Below, piece after piece: positions 27,886-57,607 of a stretch of DNA of 64,000 nt. The DNA lies in the NCBI GenBank assembly GCA_050013655.1, contig JBEKEV010000011.1, positions 13,703 through 77,702 of the forward strand. Direction: 5' to 3'. A program made the position numbers and the translations under genes. The notes beneath the pieces were generated by a model. It was given only the letters and a program-made list of their open reading frames with translations. It searched no databases and had not been told where the DNA came from. This stretch comes from Bacteroidota bacterium (GTDB lineage: Bacteria; Bacteroidota; Ignavibacteria; UBA10030). The number at the start of each line of letters is the position of its first letter. Positions within the stretch are counted from its first letter, which is position 1.

Positions 27886-28191
27886 TATGCTACTATTAGT
27901 AGCAATCTAAGATGCAATTAGGAGATTTACAAGTGTGCAGGAATTTTACAAATAGCTCACTGCGAACAAAATTATTCGAGTAAGTTTGACTCGTTTGGAT
28001 ATTTCCTGAAATTTAGAATTTCTGAATGTCAATGCATGCAATAATAAAGGTCCATATCTAAATTATTGTTGTTTCCAAGCTGCGCCATAACGATATTAAA
28101 AAGTATACATATGATTACTTCCACGAATGCTTGTTTATTCCTCGCCAACAACCATTTACCGGCTATTTAACTTCAATTACTTATACTCCCT

Positions 28192-28545
28192 CTAATCGTT
28201 ATCTGTTGTACATTTATCTGACTTTTGAAATGCTTTGTATATTTTCTTCCACAAATGTGTAACATTTTTTTCGTTTCTGCCGGAAAAGAAAATATGTTCT
28301 TCTAAATCTTGCGAGAACTCTTCCCTTTGAGATATTGTACCAACTGATTGACCAATACGTGCGGCGGAACCGATACCATCAGATGAACATGATCTTTGGA
28401 AAGATGCCCTTGGATGATCTCGACATCGTAACTTCGACATATCTCTCTGATCAATTCGCGTGCTCGTGTTGCAATCTCACCTTGCAAGACTGGCTTGCGA
28501 TATTTCGTGATCCATACCAGGTGATACTTACTATCATAGACTCAT
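28192..28545 (-). mobile_element. tnpA: IS200/IS605-family tnpA (Y1 HUH transposase) remnant, a pseudogene with multiple frameshifts
   Basis: Minus-strand translation gives M-S-L (frameshift) YDSKYHLVWITKYRKPVLQGEIATRARELIREICRSYDVEIIQGHLSKDHVHLMVSVPPHVLVNQLVQYLKGKSSRKI(stop). The C-terminal part (…HLWKKIYKAFQ…) is in another frame. HxH and YH..W..KYR are IS200 TnpA hallmarks. Confidence 0.65.
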
Positions 28546-28970
28546 TGACTCGACTTGCAATAATATTTTATGACGCAAGCATACTAAAGTTTTCGCCTAA
28601 AGTCGAGGGTTTCTCTCCCATTTCTCAAGGGGGGCAATAAAAAGGAATAAGTGGGATACAAAAAAATCAAAATGTAACCGTTTCTAGAACCAAGCATCTA
28701 AGTAGTAGTGTTCAATTTAATTGATTTTTCCAAACTCCTCCTTATGCATTACTTTACGTCCACGCTTTCTTGATTATTACCAAAAATCATCGAAATGTGC
28801 ACGAAATTTGCGTATGAGTTTGGAACGGTCTCCTTCCTTCTTGATCCCGACACGATTGCAACGTGGCGGGAGAAATCCCGCTGCTTCCGCGTTTTTCAGT
28901 GTCCCATGTTTTTTACGAGATTAGCGGGACCCCGCGATTTTTGGCAATCACAACTTTATCGCCCCCATTG

Positions 28971-43355: not shown

Positions 43356-44208
43356 TTATTGTCTCACTAACCTGATCAGCAAGACATCGTGCACTGGGAT
43401 CTCAGCACTCAAGATTTTTGATGTTGTACCGAGAGATTTTTTTGCCCAAAGGTCTCGAATACTATACGTGGCCTCTTTCGCATTTAACGTTTTCTTCGAA
43501 ATATCATCGCCTACAACATTGGCTGCCCAATCAAATTCCAGTTTGTGAACTTGTTCAGTTCGATTGAGAAAACAGATTGCCCAATCGCCCTGGACTAACG
43601 GTTTCGCCCACACTTCAACTCCTTGCGCGCAACTGTTAAATCTGAATCCTTGCACACCAAGAGAATCCTGATCGATGGCAATCACTTCTTTATTGACAAG
43701 AATCTCTCTTATTTCTTTCTTCATACTCCTCAAATCATTCCCTGCCATGAGCGGAGCTGCCATCATACACCACAACGAAAAATGTGCCCGGTCTTCACTC
43801 AATGACATCCCTCGCCCAACCTCCATCATATCGGGATCATTCCAGTGATCAGGTCCTGCATAGGAGCGAATATCTTTTCGCATCTCAACAATTTTCATAA
43901 TACCCCACGACGACCACGTGCCATGGTTCACTTCACAGTCAAAGCAATCTTTTATATCACCCGTAGTTCGCCAGAGGTGCCCGACATCCTTTCCCCATTT
44001 CCAGGGATCGTTATTTCCCCACTCGCATAGACTGAAAACGATCGGTCTACCGGCAGTATGCAGCTATAAATACAGGATTCGATTGACTTTTGCCAACAAG
44101 TCCTATTGTGATATTCTTTTCCTTTTTTTGTGTATTGCCTGCAACGGCTAAAATCACTGACACACCGAGAAGAACAAAACATGTACACAAAATAGATCTG
44201 TAATTCAT
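43356..44208 (-). pseudogene. Truncated GH27 alpha-galactosidase remnant: a signal peptide, then a frameshift at about 44063, then only the C-terminal part of the GH27 domain
   Basis: The frame opening at 44063 reads AGRPIVFSLCEWGNNDPWKWG...DHWNDPDMMEVGRG...AHFSLWCMMAAPLMAGNDLR (GH27 blocks). The preceding roughly 170 aa, including the nucleophile Asp region, are absent. An upstream MNYRSILCTCFVLLGVSVILAVAG signal-peptide ORF lies in another frame. Confidence 0.6.
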
Positions 44209-44458: not shown

Positions 44459-45514
44459 CTACTGTATGGTTTTATAATGTACCAAAGACAGTTCCCTTAA
44501 TACTTGGGCACTGTATTCGGGTGTAATATCTCTTTGCGGTTCAGCCAACATTTCATATCCCACCATAAACTTCTTAATACTTGCGGATCTTAACAGCGGC
44601 GGATAAAAATGCATGTGAAGATGCCATTCGTTGTGCTCTTTGCCATCCGTTGGTGCCTGATGCAGTCCGGCAGAATAGGGAAAAGATGTTTTGAAAAGAT
44701 TATCGTACTTGATAGTTACAACACGTAGCGCTTGAGAGAGATCTTTTTTCTCTTGTATCCTCAATTCGAGAATATTGGCAATCTTTCTTTTGGATAGGAT
44801 CATCGTTTCAAACGGCCAGACAGCCCAGAACGGAATCACAATGGCGAAGGAGGCGTTTTCGAAGACAATCCTTTCTTTCAGCCGCAGTTCCAGCTTCAGG
44901 TAATCCGCTAAGAGGCTGCGCTTCTTCTTGGAATAGTATGATCTGAATTGCTTCAACTCTTTCAGAGGTTCCATCGGAATACTTTCCTGTGCCCAGATTT
45001 GTCCATGGGGATGGGGATTACTATTCCCCATGATCGACCCTTTGTTTTCGAATATTTGCACATAGTTGATATGCGGTTGTTGACCTAATGACTTGAATTC
45101 TTCTTGCCAGATTGTGATAACATCTTCTATTTCGCTCTCGTTCATTTCTGCGAGAGTGAGATCATGCCTGGGTGAAAAATTGACAACTCTGCAAATTCCT
45201 TTTTCGGATTTCGCAATCAACAAACTATTTTTTTCTAAATTTCTTTTGGGGACATCCGGAACCAGCGCTGAGAAATCATTGGTAAAAGCATATGTGCCAG
45301 TATACTGAGGATTTAAATCGCCATTGGCACGTTTATTCCCGGGACATAAATAGCACTCCGGTTCATATGCACGGCTTGGAGCAGTTGCTAAAGCAGAGAT
45401 TTCTCCCTGCCAGGGGCGTTGAGTTCTCTGTGGAGAAACCAATACCCATTCTCCGGTCAAGATGTTTTTCCTTCGATGAGGAGAATGAATGAGTTCAGAC
45501 TGTTGCATGTTCAT
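44459..45514 (-). CDS. galT: Galactose-1-phosphate uridylyltransferase
   Basis: HIT-family GalT motifs: CYLCPGN...HPHGQIWA; about 350 aa. Confidence 0.9.
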   Translation of the reverse strand: MNMQQSELIHSPHRRKNILTGEWVLVSPQRTQRPWQGEISALATAPSRAYEPECYLCPGNKRANGDLNPQYTGTYAFTNDFSALVPDVPKRNLEKNSLLIAKSEKGICRVVNFSPRHDLTLAEMNESEIEDVITIWQEEFKSLGQQPHINYVQIFENKGSIMGNSNPHPHGQIWAQESIPMEPLKELKQFRSYYSKKKRSLLADYLKLELRLKERIVFENASFAIVIPFWAVWPFETMILSKRKIANILELRIQEKKDLSQALRVVTIKYDNLFKTSFPYSAGLHQAPTDGKEHNEWHLHMHFYPPLLRSASIKKFMVGYEMLAEPQRDITPEYSAQVLRELSLVHYKTIQ

Positions 45515-46676
45515 TCACAGCAATAATGTTCGTTCCAGAGCCGATTGAAGTTACATAGGTTTTCAGATCAACATTGAATTCTTGTTTATACTTTTGGGCA
45601 GCATAGATACTGATCTCTTCTATCCCATCATTCTCCATGAGGTTGATTGTGCACCCGCCAAATCCGCCGCCCATCATCCGTGATCCGTATACCTGCGGCT
45701 TGCTCTTGACCAATGTTATCAAGAAATCGAGTTCTTTACAGCTTACTTCATAGTCACGTTTCAATCCTTCGTGTGTCTGATTCATAAATGCGCCAAAGGC
45801 TTTTAAATCACTTTTTTTAAGTTCCTTGCAAGCTTTCAAAACCCGATCATTCTCCTCGACAACATATTTGCATCGCCGATATATCGTTGGATTCATAAAG
45901 GCATTGCTTTTCTCTATCAAATCAATAGAAACGTCCCGCAAAGAGTTCACTTCTGGACAACATCTTTTTAGTATCGCTACTCCCTCACTGCACTCTTCTC
46001 TTCTTCTATTATATTCTGATGATGCCAATGAATGAGAAACGCGTGTATCAAAGAGAACGATGGAAATATTGGGATAAGCAAACGGATAATATTGATATTC
46101 CAGTGAACGACAATCTATGCGAAGCACCTTATCTCGCTCACCAAAAATATTTATGTATTGATCCATAATGCCGCATCGAACACCGACAAATTCATTCTCT
46201 GCTTTCTGGGCAAGTTGCACCATTGCAAGATCATCTATTCGTAATTCGAAGAGTGTCTTCAGGGCAAAAGCCAAACCTGCTTCGATTGCGGCTGAAGATG
46301 ACAATCCTGCACCGATGGGAATATCCCCTCCGAAAACACAGTTAAATCCTCGTAGTCGATAACGCGTCTTTATGAACTGATCAACAACACCCATGAGATA
46401 ATTCGGCCAACCTTTTGGCGTGAATTGGAGATTATCCAGTGTAAATTTATATTCATCGTCCATATCAAGCGCAAAGATATCGCATACTCTATCATTGCGC
46501 GGAGTGATAGCAAAATATATCGCCTTTTCTATTGCCGCAGGGAGAACATATCCTAAATTATAATCCGTATGTTCACCGATGAGGTTCACTCTCCCGGGCG
46601 ACCGCACAAGGAGGGGCCGTTCTGCGAAGCGTCCCTTAAATTTTTCTTCCACTCTATGAACAGTATTCATAAGCAA
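45495..46676 (-). CDS. galK: Galactokinase
   Basis: GHMP kinase; galactokinase signature SPGRVNLIGEHTDYNLGYVLPAAI; GLSSSAA; overlaps galT by 20 nt. Confidence 0.9.
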   Translation of the reverse strand: MLMNTVHRVEEKFKGRFAERPLLVRSPGRVNLIGEHTDYNLGYVLPAAIEKAIYFAITPRNDRVCDIFALDMDDEYKFTLDNLQFTPKGWPNYLMGVVDQFIKTRYRLRGFNCVFGGDIPIGAGLSSSAAIEAGLAFALKTLFELRIDDLAMVQLAQKAENEFVGVRCGIMDQYINIFGERDKVLRIDCRSLEYQYYPFAYPNISIVLFDTRVSHSLASSEYNRRREECSEGVAILKRCCPEVNSLRDVSIDLIEKSNAFMNPTIYRRCKYVVEENDRVLKACKELKKSDLKAFGAFMNQTHEGLKRDYEVSCKELDFLITLVKSKPQVYGSRMMGGGFGGCTINLMENDGIEEISIYAAQKYKQEFNVDLKTYVTSIGSGTNIIAVNEHATV

Positions 46677-46677
46677 C

Positions 46678-46923
46678 TCAATTCGTCTGCTTTCGTGTCT
46701 TTAAATACATCACTCCGCCAAAAGCGACCATGAGTGCTCCCCACCAGAGATTGGGATGGGTTTCTGCAAGTACTGTTTTTATTAATGGGGGATTGATGAT
46801 TTGATATAATCCGCTTAAAAATATAAGCCCTCCCATGACCAACAATATCAAGCCAACAAAATACCAGATGGGTTTCATTTTATGTTCTGACATAATCTTC
46901 TTCTCCTTGTTTACCAAAACCAA
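46678..46923 (-). CDS. Small two-TM membrane protein overlapping the symporter gene by 13 nt
   Basis: 81 aa with two hydrophobic helices; 13-nt overlap with the symporter gene; no homolog recognised. Confidence 0.35.
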   Translation of the reverse strand: MVLVNKEKKIMSEHKMKPIWYFVGLILLVMGGLIFLSGLYQIINPPLIKTVLAETHPNLWWGALMVAFGGVMYLKTRKQTN

Positions 46924-48587
46924 AGATTCAATATGATGAATACGATTAAAGAAATAATTGCATAGAATTCCGGACGCTTCACGAAAGGAATATGTTGATC
47001 ATGATTCTCTTGTGTCAATCCCTTTACCAAACCAACTAATTCTTCTTTTGCCCTCTTCTTCGTAAAGAGGCTGACAGCGACAGTCACAAGCGCACAAATC
47101 AGCCAAGCCCACCACGCACGCCAAAAATTTGCAGCCATATCACTTTGAACGCTTGACATCGTGATGATACTTTCTGCAAACCAGTGAAACTTGACGGCTA
47201 AATACATAAGAAACGATGAAAGCATCCCCGTTACGAGTCCCCAAAACGCCCCGTTCGGTGTTATCCACCAGACAAACATACCGACCAGCATGGTCGCAAA
47301 CAACGGTGCATTGACCCAGGAAAAGATTGCCTGCATATAATCCATAATGCTGGGGAAACTTTTTGCCCAGTATGCAGTAACAAGAGAAAGGACAACTCCA
47401 ACGATCGTCGAGACCCGTCCCATCCAAAGCAGATGAGCATCCGATGCGTTTCTATTCAAAACAGATTTATAGATATCATATGTCCACACGGTATTGAATG
47501 CACTCACATTTCCCGCTTGTCCCGCCATAAATCCTGCGAGCAGCGCTGTTACCCCCAAACCGACCAATCCGGGAGGATAGTATCGTGCAATGAGCAGTGG
47601 AAGTGCAGAATCATAATTTGTTTGTGCTCCGTCATGAAGCAATTTGAATCCGCTCTTCGGATCAATGGAAAGAGCAATGGCTATCAATCCCGCAAGGATG
47701 ACAATGAACGGCAAAGCCATTTTGAAAAATGATGCAAGGATGGGAGTCATGCGAGCGGAACGCAAATCTTTTGCCGAAAATGCGCGTTGCACGACAAGAA
47801 AGTCCGTCGTCCAGTACCCAAAAGATAAAACAAATCCAAGTCCTAAGACAATCCCGCCCCAATGGACGAACATGCCATTGCGCATAGGATCTGAGGATGA
47901 TGACCATAATGTTGTAAATGAAATATGTGAATTGAATTCATTAATACGGGCCATAATGTCATGCACACTCCCGATTTCAAAAATTCCGAGAATCGAAACC
48001 AGAAACAATCCAAACCAGATCAAGAAGAACTGTATGATTTCCGTAAAGATAGCCGACATCAATCCGCTCAAAGATACATAGACGGCAACGGTAATAGCGG
48101 ACGCCCACATACTGTAATCCCAGTTCCAACCAAGGAATGTATGAAGAACAAGGGCCATTGCATATAAATTTATTCCCGACACAAGGAGTGTCATGATCGC
48201 AAAAGAAATTCCATTGAGGACTCGAGTCTTTTCATCGAACCGGAGTTTAAGATATCCCGGGATGGAATTAATTTTACTGCTGTAGTAGAACGGCATCATA
48301 TAGATGCCAAGGAAAAGCATCGCGGGAACTGCACCTATCCAATAGAAATGTGCGACATACATTCCATACTTGAACGTATTGCCCGTCATCCCCATAAGCT
48401 CAAGGGCACCAAGATTTGCAGACAAGAACGCGAGTCCGGCGACCCATGAAGAATTTTTCCTTCCGGCAAGAAAAAAATCCTCTTGGCTCTTTGTATATTT
48501 TCGAAGATACATCCCTATGCCGAGAATAAAGATGAAATAGACAACGATGATAACCCAATCAATTAATGATAGTCCGATTGCTTCCAT
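46911..48587 (-). CDS. Sodium:solute symporter (SGLT-like; likely Na+/galactose or galactoside)
   Basis: N-terminus DWVIIVVYFIFILGIGMYLRKY...DFFLAGRKNSSWVAGLAFLSANLGA is the SSS signature; 13-14 TM helices; sits in the gal operon. Confidence 0.85.
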   Translation of the reverse strand: MEAIGLSLIDWVIIVVYFIFILGIGMYLRKYTKSQEDFFLAGRKNSSWVAGLAFLSANLGALELMGMTGNTFKYGMYVAHFYWIGAVPAMLFLGIYMMPFYYSSKINSIPGYLKLRFDEKTRVLNGISFAIMTLLVSGINLYAMALVLHTFLGWNWDYSMWASAITVAVYVSLSGLMSAIFTEIIQFFLIWFGLFLVSILGIFEIGSVHDIMARINEFNSHISFTTLWSSSSDPMRNGMFVHWGGIVLGLGFVLSFGYWTTDFLVVQRAFSAKDLRSARMTPILASFFKMALPFIVILAGLIAIALSIDPKSGFKLLHDGAQTNYDSALPLLIARYYPPGLVGLGVTALLAGFMAGQAGNVSAFNTVWTYDIYKSVLNRNASDAHLLWMGRVSTIVGVVLSLVTAYWAKSFPSIMDYMQAIFSWVNAPLFATMLVGMFVWWITPNGAFWGLVTGMLSSFLMYLAVKFHWFAESIITMSSVQSDMAANFWRAWWAWLICALVTVAVSLFTKKRAKEELVGLVKGLTQENHDQHIPFVKRPEFYAIISLIVFIILNLWFW

Positions 48588-48723
48588 AGAGTATTCCTTT
48601 TTTCGTTTTGTGTGTGTGGAGACGAATACAGTTTTGCACCTGATAACGAATGTCTATTCATTTCTTCAGCCCATAGTGTCACGTTCCGTGGTTCAAAGTT
48701 CAATGCAATGGTTCAATACTATT

Positions 48724-48739
48724 CTGCAAACGTTTGCAG
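48724..48739. promoter_or_regulatory. Perfect 16-bp palindrome CTGCAAACGTTTGCAG, a LacI-family operator, in the promoter region of the symporter-galK-galT operon
   Basis: It matches the LacI/CcpA-family consensus TGnAAnCGnTTnCA exactly. It sits between the LacI-gene stop (48754) and the symporter start (48587). Confidence 0.55.
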
Positions 48740-48753
48740 GAACATAAAAAAAA

Positions 48754-49767
48754 TTAGGTCGACCTGCGAACAATTAATTTTGTTTCAAGAATCATTGTTT
48801 CCGGCTTCATCAGTTTGTCTTCGATTGTATGGACGAGTATTTCCGCAGCCCTTCTCCCCATCTCAAAAGAAGGTTGTTCGACTGTCGTAATAGGCGGATC
48901 AACCAAACTTGTAATCTTGTTATTCGAAAATCCCATAATAGCAATATCATCGGGAATTTTTAATTTTGCTTCTTTGATTCTTTGGAAAGCTCCGATGGCA
49001 ACAGGATCGTTCACAGCAAAAATCGCGTCCGGAAGCATATTTTCTTTCAGCAGAGCATCCATGGAATTATATCCATTTTGTTCATGCAGTCCCCCGAACC
49101 GAATAAATCCATTATGTGAAACAATATGAACTTTTTTCAGCGCATCTTCATAACCGTTTAATCTGTCTTTACAGATACCCAATTCCTTGGGTCCAGCAAA
49201 GTGTGCTATCCTTTTATATCCTTTATTCACCAGATACGTAACTGCTTCGGAAGCGCTTTGATAATCGTCAATGACAACTTTGCTTGCGTTCACATCATCG
49301 CATACACGATCAAAAAACACTAAAGGAATTTTCCATCTCAGGAGATCCTGAAAGTGCTCTCCATTCTTTGTGTTCTGCGAGATTGAAACGATAACTCCAG
49401 CGACCCGATGATGCATCAGCATATTCGTATGGAGGACTTCCCTTTCATAACTTTCATTCGATTGGCAAAGAATGATCGTATACCCAGACTGGTATGCTAC
49501 TTCCTCTATTCCACTGATCGCTGAAGAAAAGAAATCGTGTTTAATTTCCGGGACGATAACACCTATAGTCGTTGTGCGATTACTTTTTAAACTTTGTGCA
49601 ATGGGGTTGGGAGAGTACCGTAATTCTTTCGCAACTTTTCTTACAAGCTCTTTTGTTTTACTCTTTATATCCGGGTGGTCACTTAATGCACGCGATACCG
49701 TTGATGGAGATATTCTTAATCTTTTCGCGATATCAATAATTGTGGCATGTTTCGTTATATGCTTCAT
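48754..49767 (-). CDS. LacI-family transcriptional regulator (GalR-like); start taken at the Met of MKHITKHATIIDIAKR (the track ORF extends to 49824)
   Basis: N-terminal HTH IIDIAKRLRISPSTVSRAL followed by a periplasmic-binding-fold domain; adjacent to the gal operon. Confidence 0.85.
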   Translation of the reverse strand: MKHITKHATIIDIAKRLRISPSTVSRALSDHPDIKSKTKELVRKVAKELRYSPNPIAQSLKSNRTTTIGVIVPEIKHDFFSSAISGIEEVAYQSGYTIILCQSNESYEREVLHTNMLMHHRVAGVIVSISQNTKNGEHFQDLLRWKIPLVFFDRVCDDVNASKVVIDDYQSASEAVTYLVNKGYKRIAHFAGPKELGICKDRLNGYEDALKKVHIVSHNGFIRFGGLHEQNGYNSMDALLKENMLPDAIFAVNDPVAIGAFQRIKEAKLKIPDDIAIMGFSNNKITSLVDPPITTVEQPSFEMGRRAAEILVHTIEDKLMKPETMILETKLIVRRST

Positions 49768-49782
49768 CTCTCTCGTCGTTTC

Positions 49783-49796
49783 CGCAAACGTTTGAA
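49783..49796. promoter_or_regulatory. Second, imperfect LacI-type operator cGCAAACGTTTGaa, about 16 nt upstream of the preferred regulator start; possible autoregulation
   Basis: It shares the 10-bp palindromic core CAAACGTTTG with the 48724 site; the half-sites deviate at two positions. Confidence 0.35.
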
Positions 49797-50060
49797 GTGT
49801 ATCAATAATTGTTTTTTTTATCAAGCACTATTTTTCTTTTTTTCATTCTGCTACCTTCTAAGAGTCGACGACAATTTCCGCTGTTACGATGTACCAGATT
49901 AAAAATCGCCGACAGAAGTTCGATCTTTGCGTATGAGCATTAAACAGTTCCCTCCCATTCGCCAAAAAGCATAGCCTCGGTTCTTTTGCTCGCCCTGCAA
50001 TCGGAAAGAAACATTTTCATAGCTGAAGCGTCTTATCTTGTGTCCATTAAATTGAAGCAC

Positions 50061-50516
50061 ATGAAGTTTATTAAATCCTCCATAGTTCTTTCGGTCGTGT
50101 TCATCCTGAGTTCCGTTGGTTGGAATGGTTGTTACGTTCAATTTGCGACCAACTCGGACGTATCCGAGGAACCAGATGATTCGAACCAACCGCCTCCATT
50201 GGGCCCTATTATTGCCGACCCTATGCCCTATCCGGTATATCCGCATCCCGGGGGACCATATTATCCTCATCCGGTTGAGCCTCCATACATTCCACCAAGC
50301 CATATAGGAGCTCTTCCACCGAAATCCGGAACAGAACCCACCGCCGATCCTCATCGTCAATCAGGAGACCAGCGGCCATCCAATCCCGGTCAAAGCACTG
50401 GTGGACGTACTGAATCGCCGCCGTCAAGAACTTCCTGGAGTCCTGCTCCGGCGCCGCAAAATCCACCCGCGAGCTCGACTTCAAATACTCGCACAAGCGG
50501 TTCAACGCGCAGATGA
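50061..50516 (+). CDS. Small secreted proline-rich protein (hypothetical)
   Basis: Signal peptide MKFIKSSIVLSVVFILSS; the mature part is about 25% Pro (PYPVYPHPGGPYYPHPVEPPYIPP); it lies at the start of the high-GC segment. Confidence 0.4.
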   Translation: MKFIKSSIVLSVVFILSSVGWNGCYVQFATNSDVSEEPDDSNQPPPLGPIIADPMPYPVYPHPGGPYYPHPVEPPYIPPSHIGALPPKSGTEPTADPHRQSGDQRPSNPGQSTGGRTESPPSRTSWSPAPAPQNPPASSTSNTRTSGSTRR

Positions 50517-50615
50517 AGGGACTATACCGCATGTTTCTCTTGTCTGAATTCCCTGTACAAGATTTTTTTTTGAAGAATCTTCCGATATGAACACAATTGC
50601 ATTGGAGCAAACAAC

Positions 50616-52091
50616 ATGACGACAATTCTCAACAGAGCGTGGAAAGGAGCCATTCTCCTTTTCACTATTTCACTCGAAGTAGCTTTCGCTCAGCACGACA
50701 CTTCACAACAACTACCGGCACGCATTGCGGGATCGATTCTTGTCAACGGGCATTCACTCGACTATCTGCAAGAGTTGACCGACGGATTTGGCGGACGTGT
50801 CTCCGGCTCAGCTGCTTATCAACGGGCATCGGAATGGGCTGCCGATCAGTTTCGCGCAGTCGGAGTGAAGGATGTAAAACTCGAGACCTTTACGCTGCCG
50901 AACGGCTGGGAGCGCATTTCTGCCCGCGCCCGTATGATCGCTCCGCTGGACCGTCCGCTTCAGGTGCATTCGTACGGTTGGGCTCCATCGACTTCTCTAG
51001 AAGGCATAAAAGCGGAGGTCGTCTATGTGCGCCACATCTTATCGCAGGACGAAATCAAGCTGCAGGCAAGCAAGATCAAAGGCCGCATTGCTCTTATCAA
51101 CGGCGAAAGTTTTTATCAGGATGAACAATTTCTGGACAGCAAGTATATCGCTTCAAAGCGTCTTCTCAAAGAACTGGGTGCGCTCGCGATGCTCGTGCGC
51201 GGCTCGGCGGATAATAATGTAACCTCAAGTTGGGACGATGTGTGGGGAGGCATGATCGAGCCGCTTCCAATACTGGAGATCGGGATGGAAGACGGAAAAC
51301 TCATCGAGCGTTCCTTAAGGAAAGGTCCCGTGACCATTGAGCTTCAATGTGCAAATAAAGTGACCGGACCCGTCAAGGTGAATAATGTCGTCGCCGAAAT
51401 CCGCGGGCGCGAAAAGCCGGACGAATGGATTCTCGTAAGTGCACATCTCGACTCCTGGGATCAAGGAACCGGGGCGCAGGATGACGGCAGCGGTTGCGCA
51501 ATGGTTCTGGATGCTGCCCGCGCCATCGCTCAGTTGAATACTGCTCCGCGCCGTTCCATCCGATTTGTGCTGTGGGGTGGAGAAGAACAGGGCTTGCTTG
51601 GATCGATGGACTATGTTCGTTTGCACGCTTCAGAAATGGGCAAGTGCATAGCGGCTATCGCTACAGGTCTGGGTGCCGGTTTTCCGCAAGGGTGGATCGT
51701 CAGAGGGAACGACGAACTGAGGAAAGCGGTGCGGCCTCTAGATCAGTCCCTGATCGGTCTGGGCGGTGATGGGTTAAAAACAGAAGTAAAATTCGAGGAA
51801 TTGTCAAGCTGGGAAACATTCTTTCTTTCAGGCATTCCAACCTTGGACCTCTGGACGAATGCGACGTATTACTGGGATATTCACAACAAACCAGGGGATA
51901 CGTTTGACAAAGTCGATTCTCATAATCTTGCCGCCGGAACAGCTATTGTAGCTATCACCGCCTACTGGATTGCCGAACAACCTTCAGTGATTGCATCGCA
52001 TCTTAATCAAGCGGCGGTGGAAAAGATTCTTAAGAGCGCGGGAGTCTACGACCGAATCAAGGATCTGCGGGAACTGGGGATTGTAAAATAG
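50616..52091 (+). CDS. M28-family zinc aminopeptidase with PA domain, secreted
   Basis: Signal peptide; M28 metal-ligand blocks (VSAHLDSWDQGTGAQDDGSGCA; the ..GGEEQGLLGS motif with the EE); GGAG Shine-Dalgarno. Confidence 0.85.
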   Translation: MTTILNRAWKGAILLFTISLEVAFAQHDTSQQLPARIAGSILVNGHSLDYLQELTDGFGGRVSGSAAYQRASEWAADQFRAVGVKDVKLETFTLPNGWERISARARMIAPLDRPLQVHSYGWAPSTSLEGIKAEVVYVRHILSQDEIKLQASKIKGRIALINGESFYQDEQFLDSKYIASKRLLKELGALAMLVRGSADNNVTSSWDDVWGGMIEPLPILEIGMEDGKLIERSLRKGPVTIELQCANKVTGPVKVNNVVAEIRGREKPDEWILVSAHLDSWDQGTGAQDDGSGCAMVLDAARAIAQLNTAPRRSIRFVLWGGEEQGLLGSMDYVRLHASEMGKCIAAIATGLGAGFPQGWIVRGNDELRKAVRPLDQSLIGLGGDGLKTEVKFEELSSWETFFLSGIPTLDLWTNATYYWDIHNKPGDTFDKVDSHNLAAGTAIVAITAYWIAEQPSVIASHLNQAAVEKILKSAGVYDRIKDLRELGIVK

Positions 52092-52891
52092 TGCCGACGA
52101 TCCTGACCGTTACAAACCTTACCAAACGATTCGACGACTTCACTGCCGTCGACGCCATCTCGTTCAGCGTCGAGCGTGGTGAAATCTTCGCGTTCCTCGG
52201 GCCAAACGGCGCCGGAAAGACAACAACCATCAGGATGCTGATCACTCTGCTTGCGCCGACGAGCGGAGAAGCAAGGATTGAAGGATACGATGTAGTGCGT
52301 CATCCCGCCGAAGTCCGGAGGCTTATCGGATACGTGCCGCAGATGATTTCCGTCGACGGAATGTTGACGGCATATGAAAACCTGATGCTCATGGCCCGGC
52401 TTTATGATATTCCTTTCCGCGAGCGCGAGGAGCGCATACAGGAAATTTTGAAATTCCTGGACTTGGAGAGCCATGCACATGCTCTGGTACGAACATATTC
52501 GGGAGGGATGATCAGGAAACTGGAGATCGGGCAAACGATGCTTCATCATCCTCGGATTTTATTTCTTGACGAACCCACCACCGGTCTTGACCCAGTCGCG
52601 AAACAAAATGTCTGGGATCACCTGCTGGAGCTTCACGATAAGTTCGGGACGACGATTTTTTTCTCGACGCACAACATGGACGAAGCGGAAGACGTCTGTA
52701 CCAGAGTCGCAATTATGAACACCGGCAAGATTGCAATTATCGGCACTACTTCCGAGCTAAAAGAAAAGACCGGCAACTCCGAAGCGACTCTTGAAGATTC
52801 TTTCGTTTTCTTCACGGGAAATTCTCTTCGCGAGACGACTAATTTCCGCGAAGTGCGAAGTGCAAGACGGGCAGAACGAAGACTAGGATGA
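52091..52891 (+). CDS. ABC transporter ATP-binding protein (ABC-2/DrrA-like exporter ATPase), GTG start overlapping the upstream stop
   Basis: Walker A GPNGAGKTT; signature YSGGMIRKL; Walker B ILFLDEPTTGLD; H-loop. Confidence 0.9.
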   Translation: MPTILTVTNLTKRFDDFTAVDAISFSVERGEIFAFLGPNGAGKTTTIRMLITLLAPTSGEARIEGYDVVRHPAEVRRLIGYVPQMISVDGMLTAYENLMLMARLYDIPFREREERIQEILKFLDLESHAHALVRTYSGGMIRKLEIGQTMLHHPRILFLDEPTTGLDPVAKQNVWDHLLELHDKFGTTIFFSTHNMDEAEDVCTRVAIMNTGKIAIIGTTSELKEKTGNSEATLEDSFVFFTGNSLRETTNFREVRSARRAERRLG

Positions 52892-53673
52892 ACCCCGTGC
52901 CAAAATATATTTCACAAGTTCTCACAAAGTCGTATGTGATGGCCGAAATGGAAGTGCGCAAACTTCTCCACGACCCCACGGAACTCGCGACGCGCGCGGT
53001 ACAACCGATTCTCTGGCTCGGTATCTTCGGAGAAGCAATGAGCAAGGCGCGGGCGATCCCCACGCAAGGATTCACGTACCTGCAGTTTATTACACCCGGC
53101 ATCCTGACTCAATCGGTAACGTTCGTTGCGATTTTTTACGGCATCTCGATCATCTGGGAAAGGGATATGGGGCTGCTTCAGAAAATCCTCGTAACACCGA
53201 CCCCTCGTCTTGCGCTGGTGTGGGGAAAAATGATCTCGGCAGGCGTGCGTGGGTTGAGCCAGGCGGTCATCGTCTTTCTCTTTGCCCTGATTCTGCAAAT
53301 CCACCTTCAGCTTACATTCTTCTCCATGACGGGTGTCATCATTATCACTATGCTTGGAGCAGGATTTTTCACCGGGCTGTCTATGATTATTGCGGCTCTC
53401 GTCAAAACGCGCGAACGGTTCATGGGCATAGGCCAGGTAATCACACTTCCTCTCTTTTTCGCTTCGAACGCGATCTACCCCATCAACATCATGCCGGAAT
53501 GGCTGCAAATAGTCGCAAACGTCAATCCACTCAGCTATATGGTGGATGGCCTGCGCGCGTTACTGGTGACTGGCGATTTCTCTCAACTTCCTCTAGACAT
53601 CGTCGTTCTCTTCACCGCCACTCTCGGCATATCATTCGCTAGTGCCTACTTGTATCCGAAAGTTATCGAATGA
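52888..53673 (+). CDS. ABC-2 type transporter permease
   Basis: 6 predicted TM helices; 4-nt overlap with the ATPase gene; typical ABC-2 membrane-domain size. Confidence 0.8.
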   Translation: MNPVPKYISQVLTKSYVMAEMEVRKLLHDPTELATRAVQPILWLGIFGEAMSKARAIPTQGFTYLQFITPGILTQSVTFVAIFYGISIIWERDMGLLQKILVTPTPRLALVWGKMISAGVRGLSQAVIVFLFALILQIHLQLTFFSMTGVIIITMLGAGFFTGLSMIIAALVKTRERFMGIGQVITLPLFFASNAIYPINIMPEWLQIVANVNPLSYMVDGLRALLVTGDFSQLPLDIVVLFTATLGISFASAYLYPKVIE

Positions 53674-53877
53674 TTCTCTTTGCACTCTTGTCTTCGGGAG
53701 TGAAGCTTCCGCCACGAAATTACAATACAACCTGATTCTTATTATGAAATGATGTTGCGAAGATTTATGGAGTTGAGAAGAAATGTTTTTCAATAGGCAA
53801 ACTTTATCTTAAACTTTACACGTACATATTGCATCTAACACGAAATTGGTCCATTGTACTAATAAAGAGGGTTTCAT

Positions 53878-54723
53878 ATGTCAAGATGGAAATTCAGAAT
53901 GTGTGTAAAAGCGGCGGCTTTTTCATTTTCATTGCTCCAGACAGTGATCATTTCTGGGTGTTCCTCGACAAAAGAATTGAACAGCGAATCGTTAAGCGGG
54001 ACATATATTGTCGACGGCCGTGCCGATAAATGGAACGGAAAGAAAATGCTGGATCTAAAAGACACGGGATTATTGGTCGGCGTTCAAAACAACGCGAGCA
54101 ATGTTTATGTCTGCATCATGTCCACCGATAGAACGACAGAACGGCGGATGACTGGAGCTGGAATGATTGTTTGGATCGAACCTGAAAATGGAAAGAAATT
54201 TGGAATTCATTACCCTCTCCAAATGGACAGGTCCTCAGTTGCCGAAGGGGCCAGCTCTTCCGGTTATCGTACCGAAATGGAGATATTGGGGCCTGAAAAA
54301 GATGCGGTAACCCAGAGCTCAATACTGACATCCGAAAGCGATTACGGTATTGCTGCTGCATTCCGTGATTCGTCCGGGCTTGCTGTTCTTGAATTGAAAA
54401 TTCCGCGCAAAGCAAAACAAGAACCTTATGGAGCCGGCACCGACAACACTTTAAGTATGAGTATCGAATCGGGGAAAATCGAAGGACCCTCCGGTGGAAA
54501 ACGTCAAGGTGAAAGCATGGGCGGCGGTGGTAGGCGAAGGCACGGCGGCAGCACGCCGAACGGTGAAACGCCACCGGCAGGCGGCAGTATGCCGGGTAAC
54601 GAAGGGACACACGGCGGCGGTTACTCCGGCGGTGGAGGAGGGAATTCTGGAGGACGCAGTGGCGAAGGAAGAACTTCACCCGAGCCAATTTCTCTCAGTC
54701 TTCGTGTCCATCTTGCGCAATAG
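53878..54723 (+). CDS. Hypothetical lipoprotein with a C-terminal Gly/Arg-rich low-complexity tail
   Basis: Lipobox (IISGCSS); C-terminal GGGGRRRHGGSTPNGE...GGGYSGGGGGNSGGRSGEG; AAGAGGG Shine-Dalgarno. Confidence 0.45.
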   Translation: MSRWKFRMCVKAAAFSFSLLQTVIISGCSSTKELNSESLSGTYIVDGRADKWNGKKMLDLKDTGLLVGVQNNASNVYVCIMSTDRTTERRMTGAGMIVWIEPENGKKFGIHYPLQMDRSSVAEGASSSGYRTEMEILGPEKDAVTQSSILTSESDYGIAAAFRDSSGLAVLELKIPRKAKQEPYGAGTDNTLSMSIESGKIEGPSGGKRQGESMGGGGRRRHGGSTPNGETPPAGGSMPGNEGTHGGGYSGGGGGNSGGRSGEGRTSPEPISLSLRVHLAQ

Positions 54724-54778
54724 CACATAACACATTGAACCTCATCCTCGATCAGCGAATAGCCGGTGCATTGTCGCA

Positions 54779-57607
54779 ATGAAGAAGAGTGTTGCGATAT
54801 TTCTTTTCTTCCTTATTCCAGCAGCACAAGCACAAAACATCTTGGTGCATGGAATCATTCATGACTCAAAAAGGTCACCGCTCTTTGCCGTCGATATTCG
54901 CCTTATCAACCTTCAGGATACTACAAAAATCCTTTTTACTACAACCGACCAGAGGGGATATTTCCTTTTCACGCCGGCCGAATTACGTCAATATCGTCTG
55001 GAAGCAACATACATCGGCTACCAAAAAATCGTGAAAACAATTTCTGTTGATAAACACATTATGGACTTAGGTACGTTTACGATGACGGAAACTCCCATAT
55101 CAGAAAGAGAAGTCGTTATCGAAGGCAATATTCCGGCTGCCGTTCAGAACGGTGACACAACCGAATACATCGCACGTGCTTTCAAAACTAATCCTGATGC
55201 GGTTGTAGAAGACCTTGTAACTAAAATGCCGGGCATTACAGTGAGTAGTTCAGGTACCGTGAGTGTCGGAGGCGAGACGGTACAGCGTGTTCTCGTAGAC
55301 GGTAAACCTTTCTTTGGTGATGATCCCACACTGGCATTGCGCAATTTACCCGCTGAAGTAGTTGAGAAAATTCAGGTGTTCGATCAAATGAGTGATCAGG
55401 CACAGTTTACAGGATTCGATGATGGTCAATCCGTGAAAGCAATGAATGTTATTACCCGCTCTGCAAATGCACATTCAGAATTCGGAAGATTCTCCGCCGG
55501 ATACGGAGATGATGATGGCCGTTATATAGTCGGCGCGGCGCTCAATAAATTTGACGGTGATTCCAGGCTTTCTCTTGTTGGATTAACGAACAATGTGAAC
55601 CAACAAAACTTTACTGCGCAGGATGTTCTCGGCACCGGGCCAGGTTCGAATACATCGCAGAGGCTTCCTGGGGGACGGCGATCTTCATCGACGGGCGGCG
55701 GGGGACAGGGTGGACGTTCCCCGGGCAGTCAGTTCTCTTTCGGTGGAGGGGGCGGGAGCGCCAATAGCTTTTCCGCCGCACAAGCACAAGGAATCAATAC
55801 AACAAATATGATCGGCGGAAATTATATCGACAGTCTCTCTTCTCAAGTATTTGCGCAGGGGAGTTATTTCTTCAATCAGGTGAACAATGTGAATGATCAG
55901 ACAACGAACAGGCAATATTATAATGCGGGAAGTTCCGGTAGTCTTTATGATCAGCAGACAGATGCCGACAGCAAGAATTATAACCACCGGGCGAACGCAC
56001 GCATTGTATATACCATTGACTCTTCGAATTCCATCATTGTCACACCGCAGCTTCTTTTTCAACAAAATCAAATATCCAACGTCTTGGATGCGACAAGTTC
56101 TCTTGCAACGAACGTCCCTCTCAGCGAATCGCAAACCAATAATCAGACAGATGCGTCCGGACACAATCTTACGGGACATATTACTTTACGCCACAAATTT
56201 GAACTTCCCGGAAGAACACTGTCCCTAGATTTTTCTCTATCGCATAATCAAAAACTGACAACAACACATTTTGATGCCATGACGCAGCAAACGGGGGATT
56301 CAACTGCCGCCGATACTTCGAACGACCAAGCACATTCGATAACACTCGGTTACAGCATTTCTCCAACACTCACCTACACAGAGCCGGTAACTTTCAATAG
56401 TCAATTGCAACTGACATACAACGCCTCGTATTCAAGAAATACCGCAGATATAAGAACATATAATTTCAATGCACTGCGGCAACAATATTCGGATTTCGAT
56501 ACGCTGCTCTCCAATGTGTATGAAAATGAATATATCACGCAGAGTGCGGGCATGGGTTATCGAATTCGGGAAGATGGACTGAATGCGATGGCTGGATTCT
56601 CCGTCCAATCTGCAGAATTGAAAAACGATCAAACATTTCCATTTACAGGAAACATTTCAAAATCATTTATCGATTACCTTCCCAATGCACTCCTCAGCCT
56701 TGCGCTGGGTGCGCATGAAAATTTGCGTGTGATGTACCGCGCGTCCACACGGCCGCCGAACATTACACAATTACAAAATGTTATCAACAATTCAAATCCG
56801 TTGCTGCTTACATCCGGTAATCTTGATTTACAGGAATCGTATACTAATTCTCTTAATGTTCGGTATTCGATTACGACCCCCCAAAAAGCCAGAAGCATGT
56901 TCCTCCTGCTCTCTGCAACATTTACAAATGAGTACATCGGCAACGCGACAACTCTTGCGACGCGTGACACCGTGCTTTCTGATGGAACAAAATTAGCACA
57001 GGGCTCTCAGTTAACTATTCCCATCAATCTCAACGGATATGCAAACGTTCGTTCATTCTTTACCTACGGTTTTCCAGTAAATTTTCTCAGCAGTATGTTG
57101 AACTTGAGTACGGGTTTAACGTATACTCACACACCGGCTGAAATAAATTCTCTTTTAGATATGACAAACACATATGCCATCACTCAGGGATTCACGCTTG
57201 GAAGCAACGTTAGTCCTGAAGTCGATTTCACTCTTGCATACTCAGGCAGCTACAATATCAGCCGCACGAAGCTGCAGCCGGATCAAAACAGCAATTATTA
57301 TTCACATACGGCGAGCTTCAAGTTCAATTGGATTTTTTGGAATGGGATCGTGTTCAGAAACGAACTGAACAGCACGGTCACGAATGGTCTTTCCAACGGA
57401 TACGACCAGAATATTCTCTTGTGGAATATGAGTTTTGGAAAGAAATTCTTTTCGAACCAGCGCGGAGAATTGAAATTAGGCGTGTCCGATATGCTCGGTC
57501 AAAATAAAAGCATCACCCGCAACATTACCGATACCTATACAGAAGATGTAAGGAATACTGCTTTGACACGATATGTCATGCTTACATTTACATACACTTT
57601 AAGATAA
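54779..57607 (+). CDS. TonB-dependent outer-membrane receptor / beta-barrel protein with N-terminal CarboxypepD_reg domain
   Basis: Signal peptide; VHGIIHDSKRSPLFAVDIRLINLQDTTKILFTTTDQRGYFLF (CarbopepD_reg); a TonB-box-like EVVIEGN; plug and barrel; internal Gly-rich linker; ends LTFTYTLR. Confidence 0.7.
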   Translation: MKKSVAIFLFFLIPAAQAQNILVHGIIHDSKRSPLFAVDIRLINLQDTTKILFTTTDQRGYFLFTPAELRQYRLEATYIGYQKIVKTISVDKHIMDLGTFTMTETPISEREVVIEGNIPAAVQNGDTTEYIARAFKTNPDAVVEDLVTKMPGITVSSSGTVSVGGETVQRVLVDGKPFFGDDPTLALRNLPAEVVEKIQVFDQMSDQAQFTGFDDGQSVKAMNVITRSANAHSEFGRFSAGYGDDDGRYIVGAALNKFDGDSRLSLVGLTNNVNQQNFTAQDVLGTGPGSNTSQRLPGGRRSSSTGGGGQGGRSPGSQFSFGGGGGSANSFSAAQAQGINTTNMIGGNYIDSLSSQVFAQGSYFFNQVNNVNDQTTNRQYYNAGSSGSLYDQQTDADSKNYNHRANARIVYTIDSSNSIIVTPQLLFQQNQISNVLDATSSLATNVPLSESQTNNQTDASGHNLTGHITLRHKFELPGRTLSLDFSLSHNQKLTTTHFDAMTQQTGDSTAADTSNDQAHSITLGYSISPTLTYTEPVTFNSQLQLTYNASYSRNTADIRTYNFNALRQQYSDFDTLLSNVYENEYITQSAGMGYRIREDGLNAMAGFSVQSAELKNDQTFPFTGNISKSFIDYLPNALLSLALGAHENLRVMYRASTRPPNITQLQNVINNSNPLLLTSGNLDLQESYTNSLNVRYSITTPQKARSMFLLLSATFTNEYIGNATTLATRDTVLSDGTKLAQGSQLTIPINLNGYANVRSFFTYGFPVNFLSSMLNLSTGLTYTHTPAEINSLLDMTNTYAITQGFTLGSNVSPEVDFTLAYSGSYNISRTKLQPDQNSNYYSHTASFKFNWIFWNGIVFRNELNSTVTNGLSNGYDQNILLWNMSFGKKFFSNQRGELKLGVSDMLGQNKSITRNITDTYTEDVRNTALTRYVMLTFTYTLR

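Follow-up and report, generated by a model that had tools for sequence, protein, structure and literature searches.

A GC-rich peptidase and exporter gene array in an Ignavibacteria-type chromosome: a probable long-resident operon with a peptidase gene of likely acidobacterial ancestry

A sharp step in guanine-plus-cytosine (GC) content within a bacterial contig raises the question of whether the DNA behind the step was acquired recently, was joined to its surroundings by faulty assembly, or has long belonged to the chromosome. Such a step is displayed by positions 49950-54750 of the window analysed here, a 64-kb stretch of contig JBEKEV010000011.1 from assembly GCA_050013655.1 of a Bacteroidota bacterium. 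The GC content of this segment, referred to below as the block, is 50.5%, and that of the remainder of the window is 41.4%. The block encodes a proline-rich lipoprotein, a secreted metallopeptidase of family M28, the ATPase and permease of an ABC-2 exporter, and a glycine-rich lipoprotein. An initial annotation, made from the sequence alone, proposed horizontal acquisition or, alternatively, a chimeric join. The best explanation found here, with a probability of roughly 0.6, is that the block forms an operon-like array which resides in an Ignavibacteria-type (FCB-group) chromosome and has been inherited vertically, and that its M28 gene came from Acidobacteriota long ago. Of the proposed horizontal acquisition, an old transfer of the M28 gene is thus retained on the grounds of phylogeny and substitution bias, and a recent island is not.

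Ancestry of the M28 peptidase gene

The host was assigned to the Ignavibacteria-type members of the FCB group because of its galK homologues and its secretion signals. The identity of the galK homologues declines smoothly from 87% to 64%, the named ones being Ignavibacteriales, Ignavibacteriaceae, Melioribacter or 'Bacteroidota' metagenome-assembled genomes (MAGs), and sorting domains of the type IX secretion system (T9SS) are frequent in the window. The M28 peptidase shows a different distribution. Its homologues comprise a clade at 64-96% identity, below which identity drops to 56% or less, and all named homologues under this drop are Blastocatellia, Pyrinomonadaceae or Acidobacteriota. Among species representatives, the top match is a 'Bacteroidota bacterium' MAG (L004) with 67% identity and the same gene order. 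Of the next 17 matches that cover about 390 or more of the 491 query residues, 16 are Acidobacteriota (L005-L020), at 43-55% identity and from genomes of 56-69% GC, and the remaining Bacteroidota M28 proteins reach just 26-29%.

In the neighbour-joining tree of M28, the Ignavibacteria-type clade (bootstrap 100) is nested in an otherwise acidobacterial clade (bootstrap 99), and monophyly of all Acidobacteriota receives 2% support. It can be seen that the phylogeny of M28 conflicts with a host that is of Ignavibacteria type by galK. The ABC-2 pair gives no clear signal of such a conflict; its family is highly conserved everywhere, and in the acidobacterial loci the pair is not linked to M28.

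A second line of evidence is the direction of substitutions, which were polarised by parsimony with two relatives, L089 and L084. On the branches of the window and of its sister population (L130), the M28 gene carries 39 GC-to-AT against 18 AT-to-GC changes (p=0.0075), with a ratio of 27:10 at third codon positions, and its deeper branches carry 72 against 37 (p=0.001). The flanking genes for the SSF transporter family, galT, lacI and the outer-membrane protein (OMP) together give 109:107 (Fisher test against M28, p=0.017). Parsimony mis-polarisation would lower the GC-to-AT excess of M28, not generate one. Across the clade, hosts of low GC have M28 genes whose GC at third codon positions (GC3) is 0.31-0.41, and for mid-GC hosts the values are 0.52-0.60. 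Because its GC3 follows the host, M28 normally equilibrates with the host and is not intrinsically GC3-rich. These comparisons suggest that the M28 gene of the window was formerly richer in GC and that its amelioration continues. Sampled mid-GC relatives (L004, L085, L092) were considered as the source of the M28-ABC copy and rejected, as this grouping appears in 0% of bootstrap replicates.

From the sequences we infer that M28 probably entered the Ignavibacteria-type clade by an old transfer from Acidobacteriota and that the operon was elaborated locally afterwards. What upholds this old transfer is the phylogeny together with the polarised substitutions; the GC step seen in the plot is poor evidence for horizontal acquisition.

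Conservation of the array in sister lineages

The block and its immediate neighbours contain the following features.

48754-49824, minus strand: LacI-family regulator (Pfam LacI and Peripla_BP_1/3/4), final gene of the galactose/glycan-utilisation cluster and left neighbour of the block
49825-50060, no strand: divergent intergenic region, holding the left synteny breakpoint at 49990-49997
50061-50516, plus strand: proline-rich small lipoprotein of 151 amino acids with a signal peptide; clade homologues lie 5' of M28
50616-52091, plus strand: secreted M28 metallopeptidase with PA-like insert, 'carboxypeptidase Q' type (PF04389; PDB 3iib)
52091-52891, plus strand: ABC-2 (DrrA-type) ATPase (PF00005; TIGR01188)
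52888-53673, plus strand: ABC-2 permease (PF01061)
52120-53688, plus strand: stretch with the ABC pair that was lost in sister lineages (comparison with L084/L090, L089 and L109)
53878-54723, plus strand: lipoprotein with a predicted DOMON/CBM9-like beta-sandwich and a Gly/Arg-rich loop (lipobox; AlphaFold model; Foldseek)
54779-57607, plus strand: OMP_b-brl_3/CarboxypepD_reg outer-membrane barrel, right neighbour of the block (Pfam)

The gene content read from the sequence in the initial annotation, namely an M28 peptidase, an ABC ATPase, an ABC-2 permease and Pro-rich and Gly-rich open reading frames (ORFs), is upheld by profiles and composition. The block also starts, as described, at the only strand switch: up to 49767 the minus strand carries all long ORFs (30), and from 50061 onwards the plus strand does (10). 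Translational coupling was correctly recognised as well: the stop codon TAG of M28 overlaps the GTG start of the ATPase gene, and the TGA of the ATPase and the ATG of the permease share ATGA. Between the permease and the Gly-rich lipoprotein gene there is a spacer of 204 nt.

The block was found in four sister lineages (L130, L089, L084/L090 and L109). In L130, a 234-kb contig of a sister population, it occupies the same locus with the ABC pair intact, and this contig is collinear with positions 44471-56665 of the window, from galT to the OMP gene, at 92.8% nucleotide (nt) identity. Sliding identity is 93-98% in block and flanks, with no step at 49990 or 54761, and amino acid (aa) identity is 92-98% in the block and 93-98% in the flanks (LacI 93%, OMP 93%). 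In L089, L084 and L090 the block lies at a different locus, at 85-88% nt identity. There, comM is followed in L089 (87% nt) by the Pro-rich, M28, Gly-rich and OMP genes, with the OMP 83% identical in aa, and in L084/L090 (85% nt) by a 4-kb low-GC insertion and then the block as in L089, with the OMP just 50% identical. The homology of the window with L084, L090, L091 and L089 starts at 49990-49997, with comM and not lacI on their left. In another relative, L129, whose gal cluster is 86% identical in nt, the lacI orthologue adjoins sodC/omp85/tamB. Because comM replaces lacI in L084/L089 and lacI of L129 is found elsewhere, the left edge is a rearrangement breakpoint at which two conserved neighbourhoods were joined. 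Position 54761 is a breakpoint in the L084 lineage only, because the OMP gene is collinear in L130 and L089.

Several local changes were observed in the relatives. The 4-kb insertion between comM and the block of L084 (5440-8504, GC 0.31-0.38) codes for a PqqD-like protein, two unannotated ORFs and an NTP_transf_5 protein, and it is this insertion, not the block, that has the appearance of an inserted cassette. In L109 (4254-11100), M28 is reduced to residues 344-491 and is accompanied by a frameshifted ATPase gene, both directly following an Eco57I-like restriction-modification gene of 1338 aa and a pair of small paralogues; the operon appears to have been destroyed by insertion of the defence gene. 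In L086 (6450-14573), an OMP_b-brl_3 gene lies 5' of the Pro-rich and M28 genes and is split into three ORFs, and a DDE_Tnp_1 insertion sequence is located between M28 and an isochorismatase-ABC-permease unit.

The ABC pair has its own history of loss. L084/L090 retain 28 nt of the 5' end of the ATPase gene and resume at 53689, and L089 retains 97 nt and resumes at 53722. Because these end points differ, the two deletions are independent. The order M28-isochorismatase-ABC-permease exists in L004 and L086, whose M28 proteins are 67-70% identical. Together with the frameshift in L109, these comparisons indicate that the pair is ancestral, having been deleted twice and pseudogenised once in sisters. 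A recent insertion of the pair, considered in view of its absence from the 90%-identical relative L084, was rejected given the ATPase remnants in L084 and L089 and the pairs kept in L004, L086 and L130.

According to these observations, a history in four steps may be proposed. The M28 gene would have passed from Acidobacteriota into the clade long ago, and a Pro-rich partner and isochorismatase/ABC-2 genes would subsequently have been added beside it. The copy of the window lineage would last have resided in a GC-richer genome and would still be drifting towards AT. The block would have been in place before the populations of the window, L130, L089 and L084 split (7-15% nt divergence). On this view, the abrupt left edge and the change of strand would not indicate an insertion site but a breakpoint of rearrangement and a region of divergent promoters.

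Proteins of the block and its neighbourhood

The M28 protein matches PF04389 at 102.8 bits (cut-off 21.3) over profile positions 1-189 of 193, and its residues 28-453 match the 'Peptidase M28' structure PDB 3iib (E=6e-47). An alignment of 21 homologues shows no variation at H277, D279, D289, E324 and H436 and almost none at E323. These residues are the putative zinc ligands and catalytic Glu of M28; the fourth acidic ligand was not located. With its full PF04389 domain, the retained HxD...D...EE...H pattern and an N-terminal signal peptide, the protein resembles M28 peptidases with a PA-type insert (3iib; carboxypeptidase Q/plasma glutamate carboxypeptidase, the name given by JGI). It differs from known members in that no NCBIfam equivalog is reached (best LapA, 36.7 bits against a cut-off of 600), and its clade differs from the acidobacterial relatives in that a Pro-rich lipoprotein gene always precedes it.

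The ATPase matches PF00005 and just clears the cut-off of TIGR01188 drrA (314.6 against 312.45 bits), whereas the permease (PF01061, 120.7 bits) scores 140.4 bits with TIGR01247 drrB and so stays under the cut-off of 223.05. As in the daunorubicin-resistance-like DrrAB exporters, the pair is a two-gene cassette of ATPase and ABC-2 permease with overlapping stop and start codons, but here it is a peptidase gene, and not an antibiotic biosynthesis cluster, to which the two genes are coupled. Homologues of the permease at 76-86% identity are found among many metagenome proteins, with labels including Patescibacteria, Omnitrophota and Bacteroidota. One homologue, from a contig with the label Candidatus Nealsonbacteria, is 78% identical, and matches labelled Patescibacteria/Omnitrophota are 76-78% identical. 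The permease is better conserved than the ATPase (75-86% versus 68-70%; compare L087 8001-8774 and L088 8001-8777). The cross-phylum identity of 76-86% was considered as proof of promiscuous transfer and downgraded, since plasmid copies from Proteobacteria, Actinobacteria and Cyanobacteria (Burkholderia, Streptomyces, cyanobacteria) are still 49-55% identical. Because these copies in three phyla remain so similar, the permease family is regarded as slow-evolving, and slow evolution, transfer or mis-binning may each account for its identity across phyla.

The Pro-rich protein (20% Pro) has a lipoprotein-type signal ending in ...GWNGC, and its motifs PHRQSGxQR, SWSPAP and TRTSGSTRR are conserved across the clade. 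A homologue lies directly 5' of M28 in at least eight loci (L004, L084, L085, L086, L089, L092, L096 and L130), and it can be seen that the gene precedes M28 in all Ignavibacteria-type loci and in none of the acidobacterial ones. A Pfam search at E up to 1 returned only a sub-threshold match to DUF4884. The gene is uncalled by the JGI and ENA pipelines, which report antisense ORFs of 80-103 aa or nothing instead.

The Gly-rich protein carries a lipobox ending in ...IISGC and a tail with 34% Gly (aa 203-270), which is a disordered Gly/Arg-rich loop before the last strand. Its family comprises 1590 representative sequences and has no Pfam model, as none matches any of 47 members, and Pfam at E up to 1 also gave nothing for the window protein. 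Sequence and profile searches of PDB matched only low-complexity Gly tracts. The AlphaFold (AF2) model from the 47-sequence alignment (pLDDT 80.7) is a beta-sandwich whose last strand follows the disordered loop; the single-sequence model, with a pLDDT of 37, was useless. The top Foldseek matches are CBM9 (1i82/7nwo), NxrC (7b04_C) and EbdC (2ivf_C), at E=4e-4 to 2e-3. When the DOMON domain of dopamine beta-hydroxylase (4zel) is included along with the ethylbenzene dehydrogenase gamma subunit (2ivf_C) and the others, the predicted globular fold resembles the DOMON/CBM9 superfamily at E=4e-4 to 2e-2 and a probability of 0.97-1.00, but TM-scores are just 0.31-0.47 and sequence identity is 6-12%, and the window protein has the extra disordered Gly/Arg loop of about 50 residues. 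The globular part is thus predicted from the model to be a DOMON/CBM9-like beta-sandwich. On the window and L130 branches, the Gly-rich gene shows 19 AT-to-GC against 8 GC-to-AT changes, the opposite of M28, and this excess may stem from turnover of the Gly/Arg tract. A distant family member with 41% identity (P0367) lies in L133 (196-6888), divergent beside matches to Pro_racemase, aldehyde dehydrogenase, DHDPS and DAO, a gene set that we presume to resemble hydroxyproline catabolism. This member adjoins neither an M28 nor an outer-membrane protein gene in L133, so that a general linkage is unsupported.

The gene on the right of the block (GC 0.44, GC3 0.44) had been called a TonB receptor. 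Only OMP_b-brl_3 (PF14905) and CarboxypepD_reg were matched in its protein; Plug and TonB_dep_Rec were not matched in Pfam, and a search of NCBIfam was without match. Because the plug domain was not detected, the name is not established. Residues 296-330 of the barrel (55664-55768) form a Gly/Arg/Ser low-complexity insert, LPGGRRSSSTGGGGQGGRSPGSQFSFGGGGGSANS, like the tail of the neighbouring lipoprotein, and this insert gives a secondary GC bump of 0.50-0.53. The downstream flank codes for S8 and M30 peptidases bearing T9SS tails. The block was described as unrelated to its flanking genes, which is true of the glycan genes upstream but not of the downstream side, with its S8 and M30 peptidases and an OMP gene that is linked in relatives. 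In positions 49600-55000, an Rfam scan at E up to 1 found nothing, and a sigma-70 promoter and terminator scan gave fewer sites than shuffled sequence, with a model unsuited to Bacteroidota-type promoters.

Other observations concern the glycan cluster and more distant parts of the window. The galK gene (45271-46870) is 75-82% identical in nt and 78% in aa to its counterpart in L130, and the adjoining SSF, galT and lacI genes are 91-98% identical. The mix differs in L129, with galK at 87%, SSF at 94% and LacI at 75%. It appears that recombination has replaced the galK allele. On the minus strand, a 180-aa ORF at 43356-43898, followed by a gap to 44459, contains only the C-terminal part of an alpha-galactosidase (Melibiase_2 positions 211-284 and the C-terminal sandwich) and probably represents a GH27 gene of the glycan cluster that was truncated or became a pseudogene. 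A region of 1.1 kb at 27886-28970 is without a long ORF, and an ORF on its minus strand (28302-28487) gives a 61-aa fragment (...DHVHLMVSVPP...LKGKSSRKI), which we take to resemble transposases of the IS200/IS605 type (Y1). The region probably represents an insertion sequence in decay or what remains of a REP-associated transposase.

Base composition, alternative explanations and significance

Windowed analysis confirmed a significant GC deviation of the block, with z=6.3 relative to the other 4.8-kb windows (n=248; mean 41.2%, standard deviation 1.5, maximum 44.2; whole window 42.1%). The jump is therefore real, but the level of about 55-60% given for it in the initial annotation applies only to sub-windows of 300-1000 bp, which peak at 0.59, 0.56 and 0.55; per-gene GC across the block is 0.50-0.53. 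Codon usage is shifted in the M28, ATPase and permease genes (50616-53673) and not in the two lipoprotein genes. The GC3 of the former is 0.54, 0.58 and 0.62, compared to 0.27-0.46 in 35 genes outside the segment, and their Karlin B to the window bulk is 0.39, 0.49 and 0.50, compared to 0.20-0.30 for like-sized genes. In L130 the same three genes have GC3 values of 0.56, 0.58 and 0.61, matching the window. The Pro-rich gene (GC3 0.42, GC at second positions (GC2) 0.61) and the Gly-rich gene (GC3 0.47, GC2 0.53) have codon usage normal for their length and are GC-rich mainly because of the residues encoded, 20% Pro in the one and the 34% Gly tail with Arg in the other. M28 is also rich in GC at first positions (GC1 0.60) and at second positions (GC2 0.43), as is its family in all hosts looked at. 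The segment is thus not a single compositional unit, and its GC rise is of mixed causes. The GC3-rich codons of M28, ATPase and permease, the GC-rich first and second codon positions of the M28 family and the Pro/Gly/Arg-rich low-complexity tracts of the two lipoprotein genes were each demonstrated, and their contributions would be additive.

The alternative that survives best, unlikely as it is, involves no relevant transfer at all. The block would be a native class of GC3-rich genes with GC-rich residues, lying beside an AT-rich accessory glycan-utilisation cluster. Native genes with comparable codon usage do exist. On the same contig, valS, 12 kb downstream, has a GC3 of 0.528 and a ParA/Mrp gene 0.49, and tamB and omp85 of the relative L129 have 0.53. 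Karlin B to this valS-type class is 0.24 for M28, 0.34 for the ATPase and 0.31 for the permease, below the values to the bulk. Since these native genes share the codon usage, the codon shift by itself is no proof of foreign origin. Core genes are, as a rule, GC-richer than accessory genes (PMC5303225). Tetranucleotide usage is ordinary: the GC-normalised distance is 0.172 for the segment (versus 0.160 +/- 0.022) and 0.220 for its core (versus 0.194 +/- 0.024), a measure that is non-discriminating at these lengths. The high GC1 and GC2 of M28 in every host and the Pro/Gly/Arg tracts of the lipoprotein genes also fit native heterogeneity.

The native genes, their codon usage, the general pattern of core genes and the tetranucleotide values weigh against the proposed reading, and further points must be counted with them. 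All trees are neighbour-joining trees, and the taxon labels are MAG names given by submitters. The comparison set of the substitution test consists of SSF, galT, lacI and the OMP gene, without valS-type genes. The ABC pair gives a ratio of 8:6, with too few sites for power. Moreover, the M28 subclade of the window groups with low-GC-host subclades (bootstrap 0.99), and no donor was identified. On the other side, native heterogeneity does not account for the nesting of M28 in Acidobacteriota when other Bacteroidota homologues are at 26-29%, for its significant GC-to-AT excess, which the flanking genes do not have, or for its GC3 of 0.31-0.41 in other low-GC hosts of the clade. Also, the GC3 values of the ATPase and permease exceed those of all native genes sampled.

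A recent genomic island, acquired shortly before sampling and with insertion borders at the GC step, is very improbable. The strong GC contrast, the highest GC3 values of the window in M28, ATPase and permease, the synteny breakpoint at 49990 against L084 and L089, the fall in similarity past 54761 against L084 (OMP 50% aa, block 85% nt) and the insertion sequence within the homologous array of L086 could all be read in its favour. With a classical genomic island the block shares a local GC deviation, a start at a synteny breakpoint and one gene, M28, in phylogenetic conflict. However, a scan of the 64-kb window found no tRNA, and no integrase or transposase domains were found in or beside the block. 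The flanking repeats and integrase genes suggested as a check yielded nothing meaningful, as the repeat search around the block gave only 14-17-nt pairs at chance level. Additionally, the block is as diverged as its flanks in L130 and is present in L089, L084 and L090 as well, its right-hand OMP gene is collinear in L130 and L089, and its codon usage resembles that of the native genes valS, tamB and omp85. Nor is the block more than 99% identical across hosts with core genes less than 90% identical.

An assembly chimera, in which the DNA of two organisms was joined at about 49,900 and/or 54,750, is refuted for practical purposes, for although the GC step coincides with the strand switch (its sole point), the left junction is crossed by a 4.4-kb contig of sample 3300044904 (L003), 100% identical over SSF-LacI-ProRich-M28-ABC, and by a contig of a further sample (L113, Ga0116120), which has 99.95% identity from LacI through the Pro-rich gene to M28, JGI and ENA data contain the same contig of about 101.6 kb with the exact M28 protein, and L130 over both edges and L089 over the right edge are collinear and different sequences, ruling out one mis-joined read set for all.

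The reading of a long-resident array with an old acidobacterial peptidase gene is therefore preferred. In order, the array would comprise the Pro-rich lipoprotein, the M28 zinc peptidase, the coupled DrrAB-type exporter and the DOMON/CBM9-like lipoprotein, followed by the OMP_b-brl_3 barrel and the T9SS-secreted S8 and M30 proteases. The role of this neighbourhood is likely envelope-associated protein or peptide processing, a function read from domains alone, which also counts against the preferred reading. Nothing in the segment is outside known kinds of system. A bolder extension, which is decidedly doubtful, is that the Ignavibacteria-type clade made a captured acidobacterial peptidase gene into a lineage-specific envelope module. 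Its parts would be the Pro-rich lipoprotein (as tether, partner or substrate), M28, the (isochorismatase-)ABC-2 exporter, the DOMON/CBM9-like lipoprotein and the OMP_b-brl_3 barrel, and the ABC-2 cassette would then be unusually mobile between phyla.

These findings imply a caution, as a 9-point GC step at a strand switch can mimic an island or a mis-join and here probably belongs to a long-resident operon. There are two modest by-products, a conserved Pro-rich lipoprotein gene that had remained uncalled and a predicted DOMON/CBM9-like fold for a protein family that has no Pfam model and counts at least 1590 representatives. The true historical signal at this locus would be the old transfer of the M28 gene from Acidobacteriota to Ignavibacteria, which was found by phylogeny and polarised substitutions.

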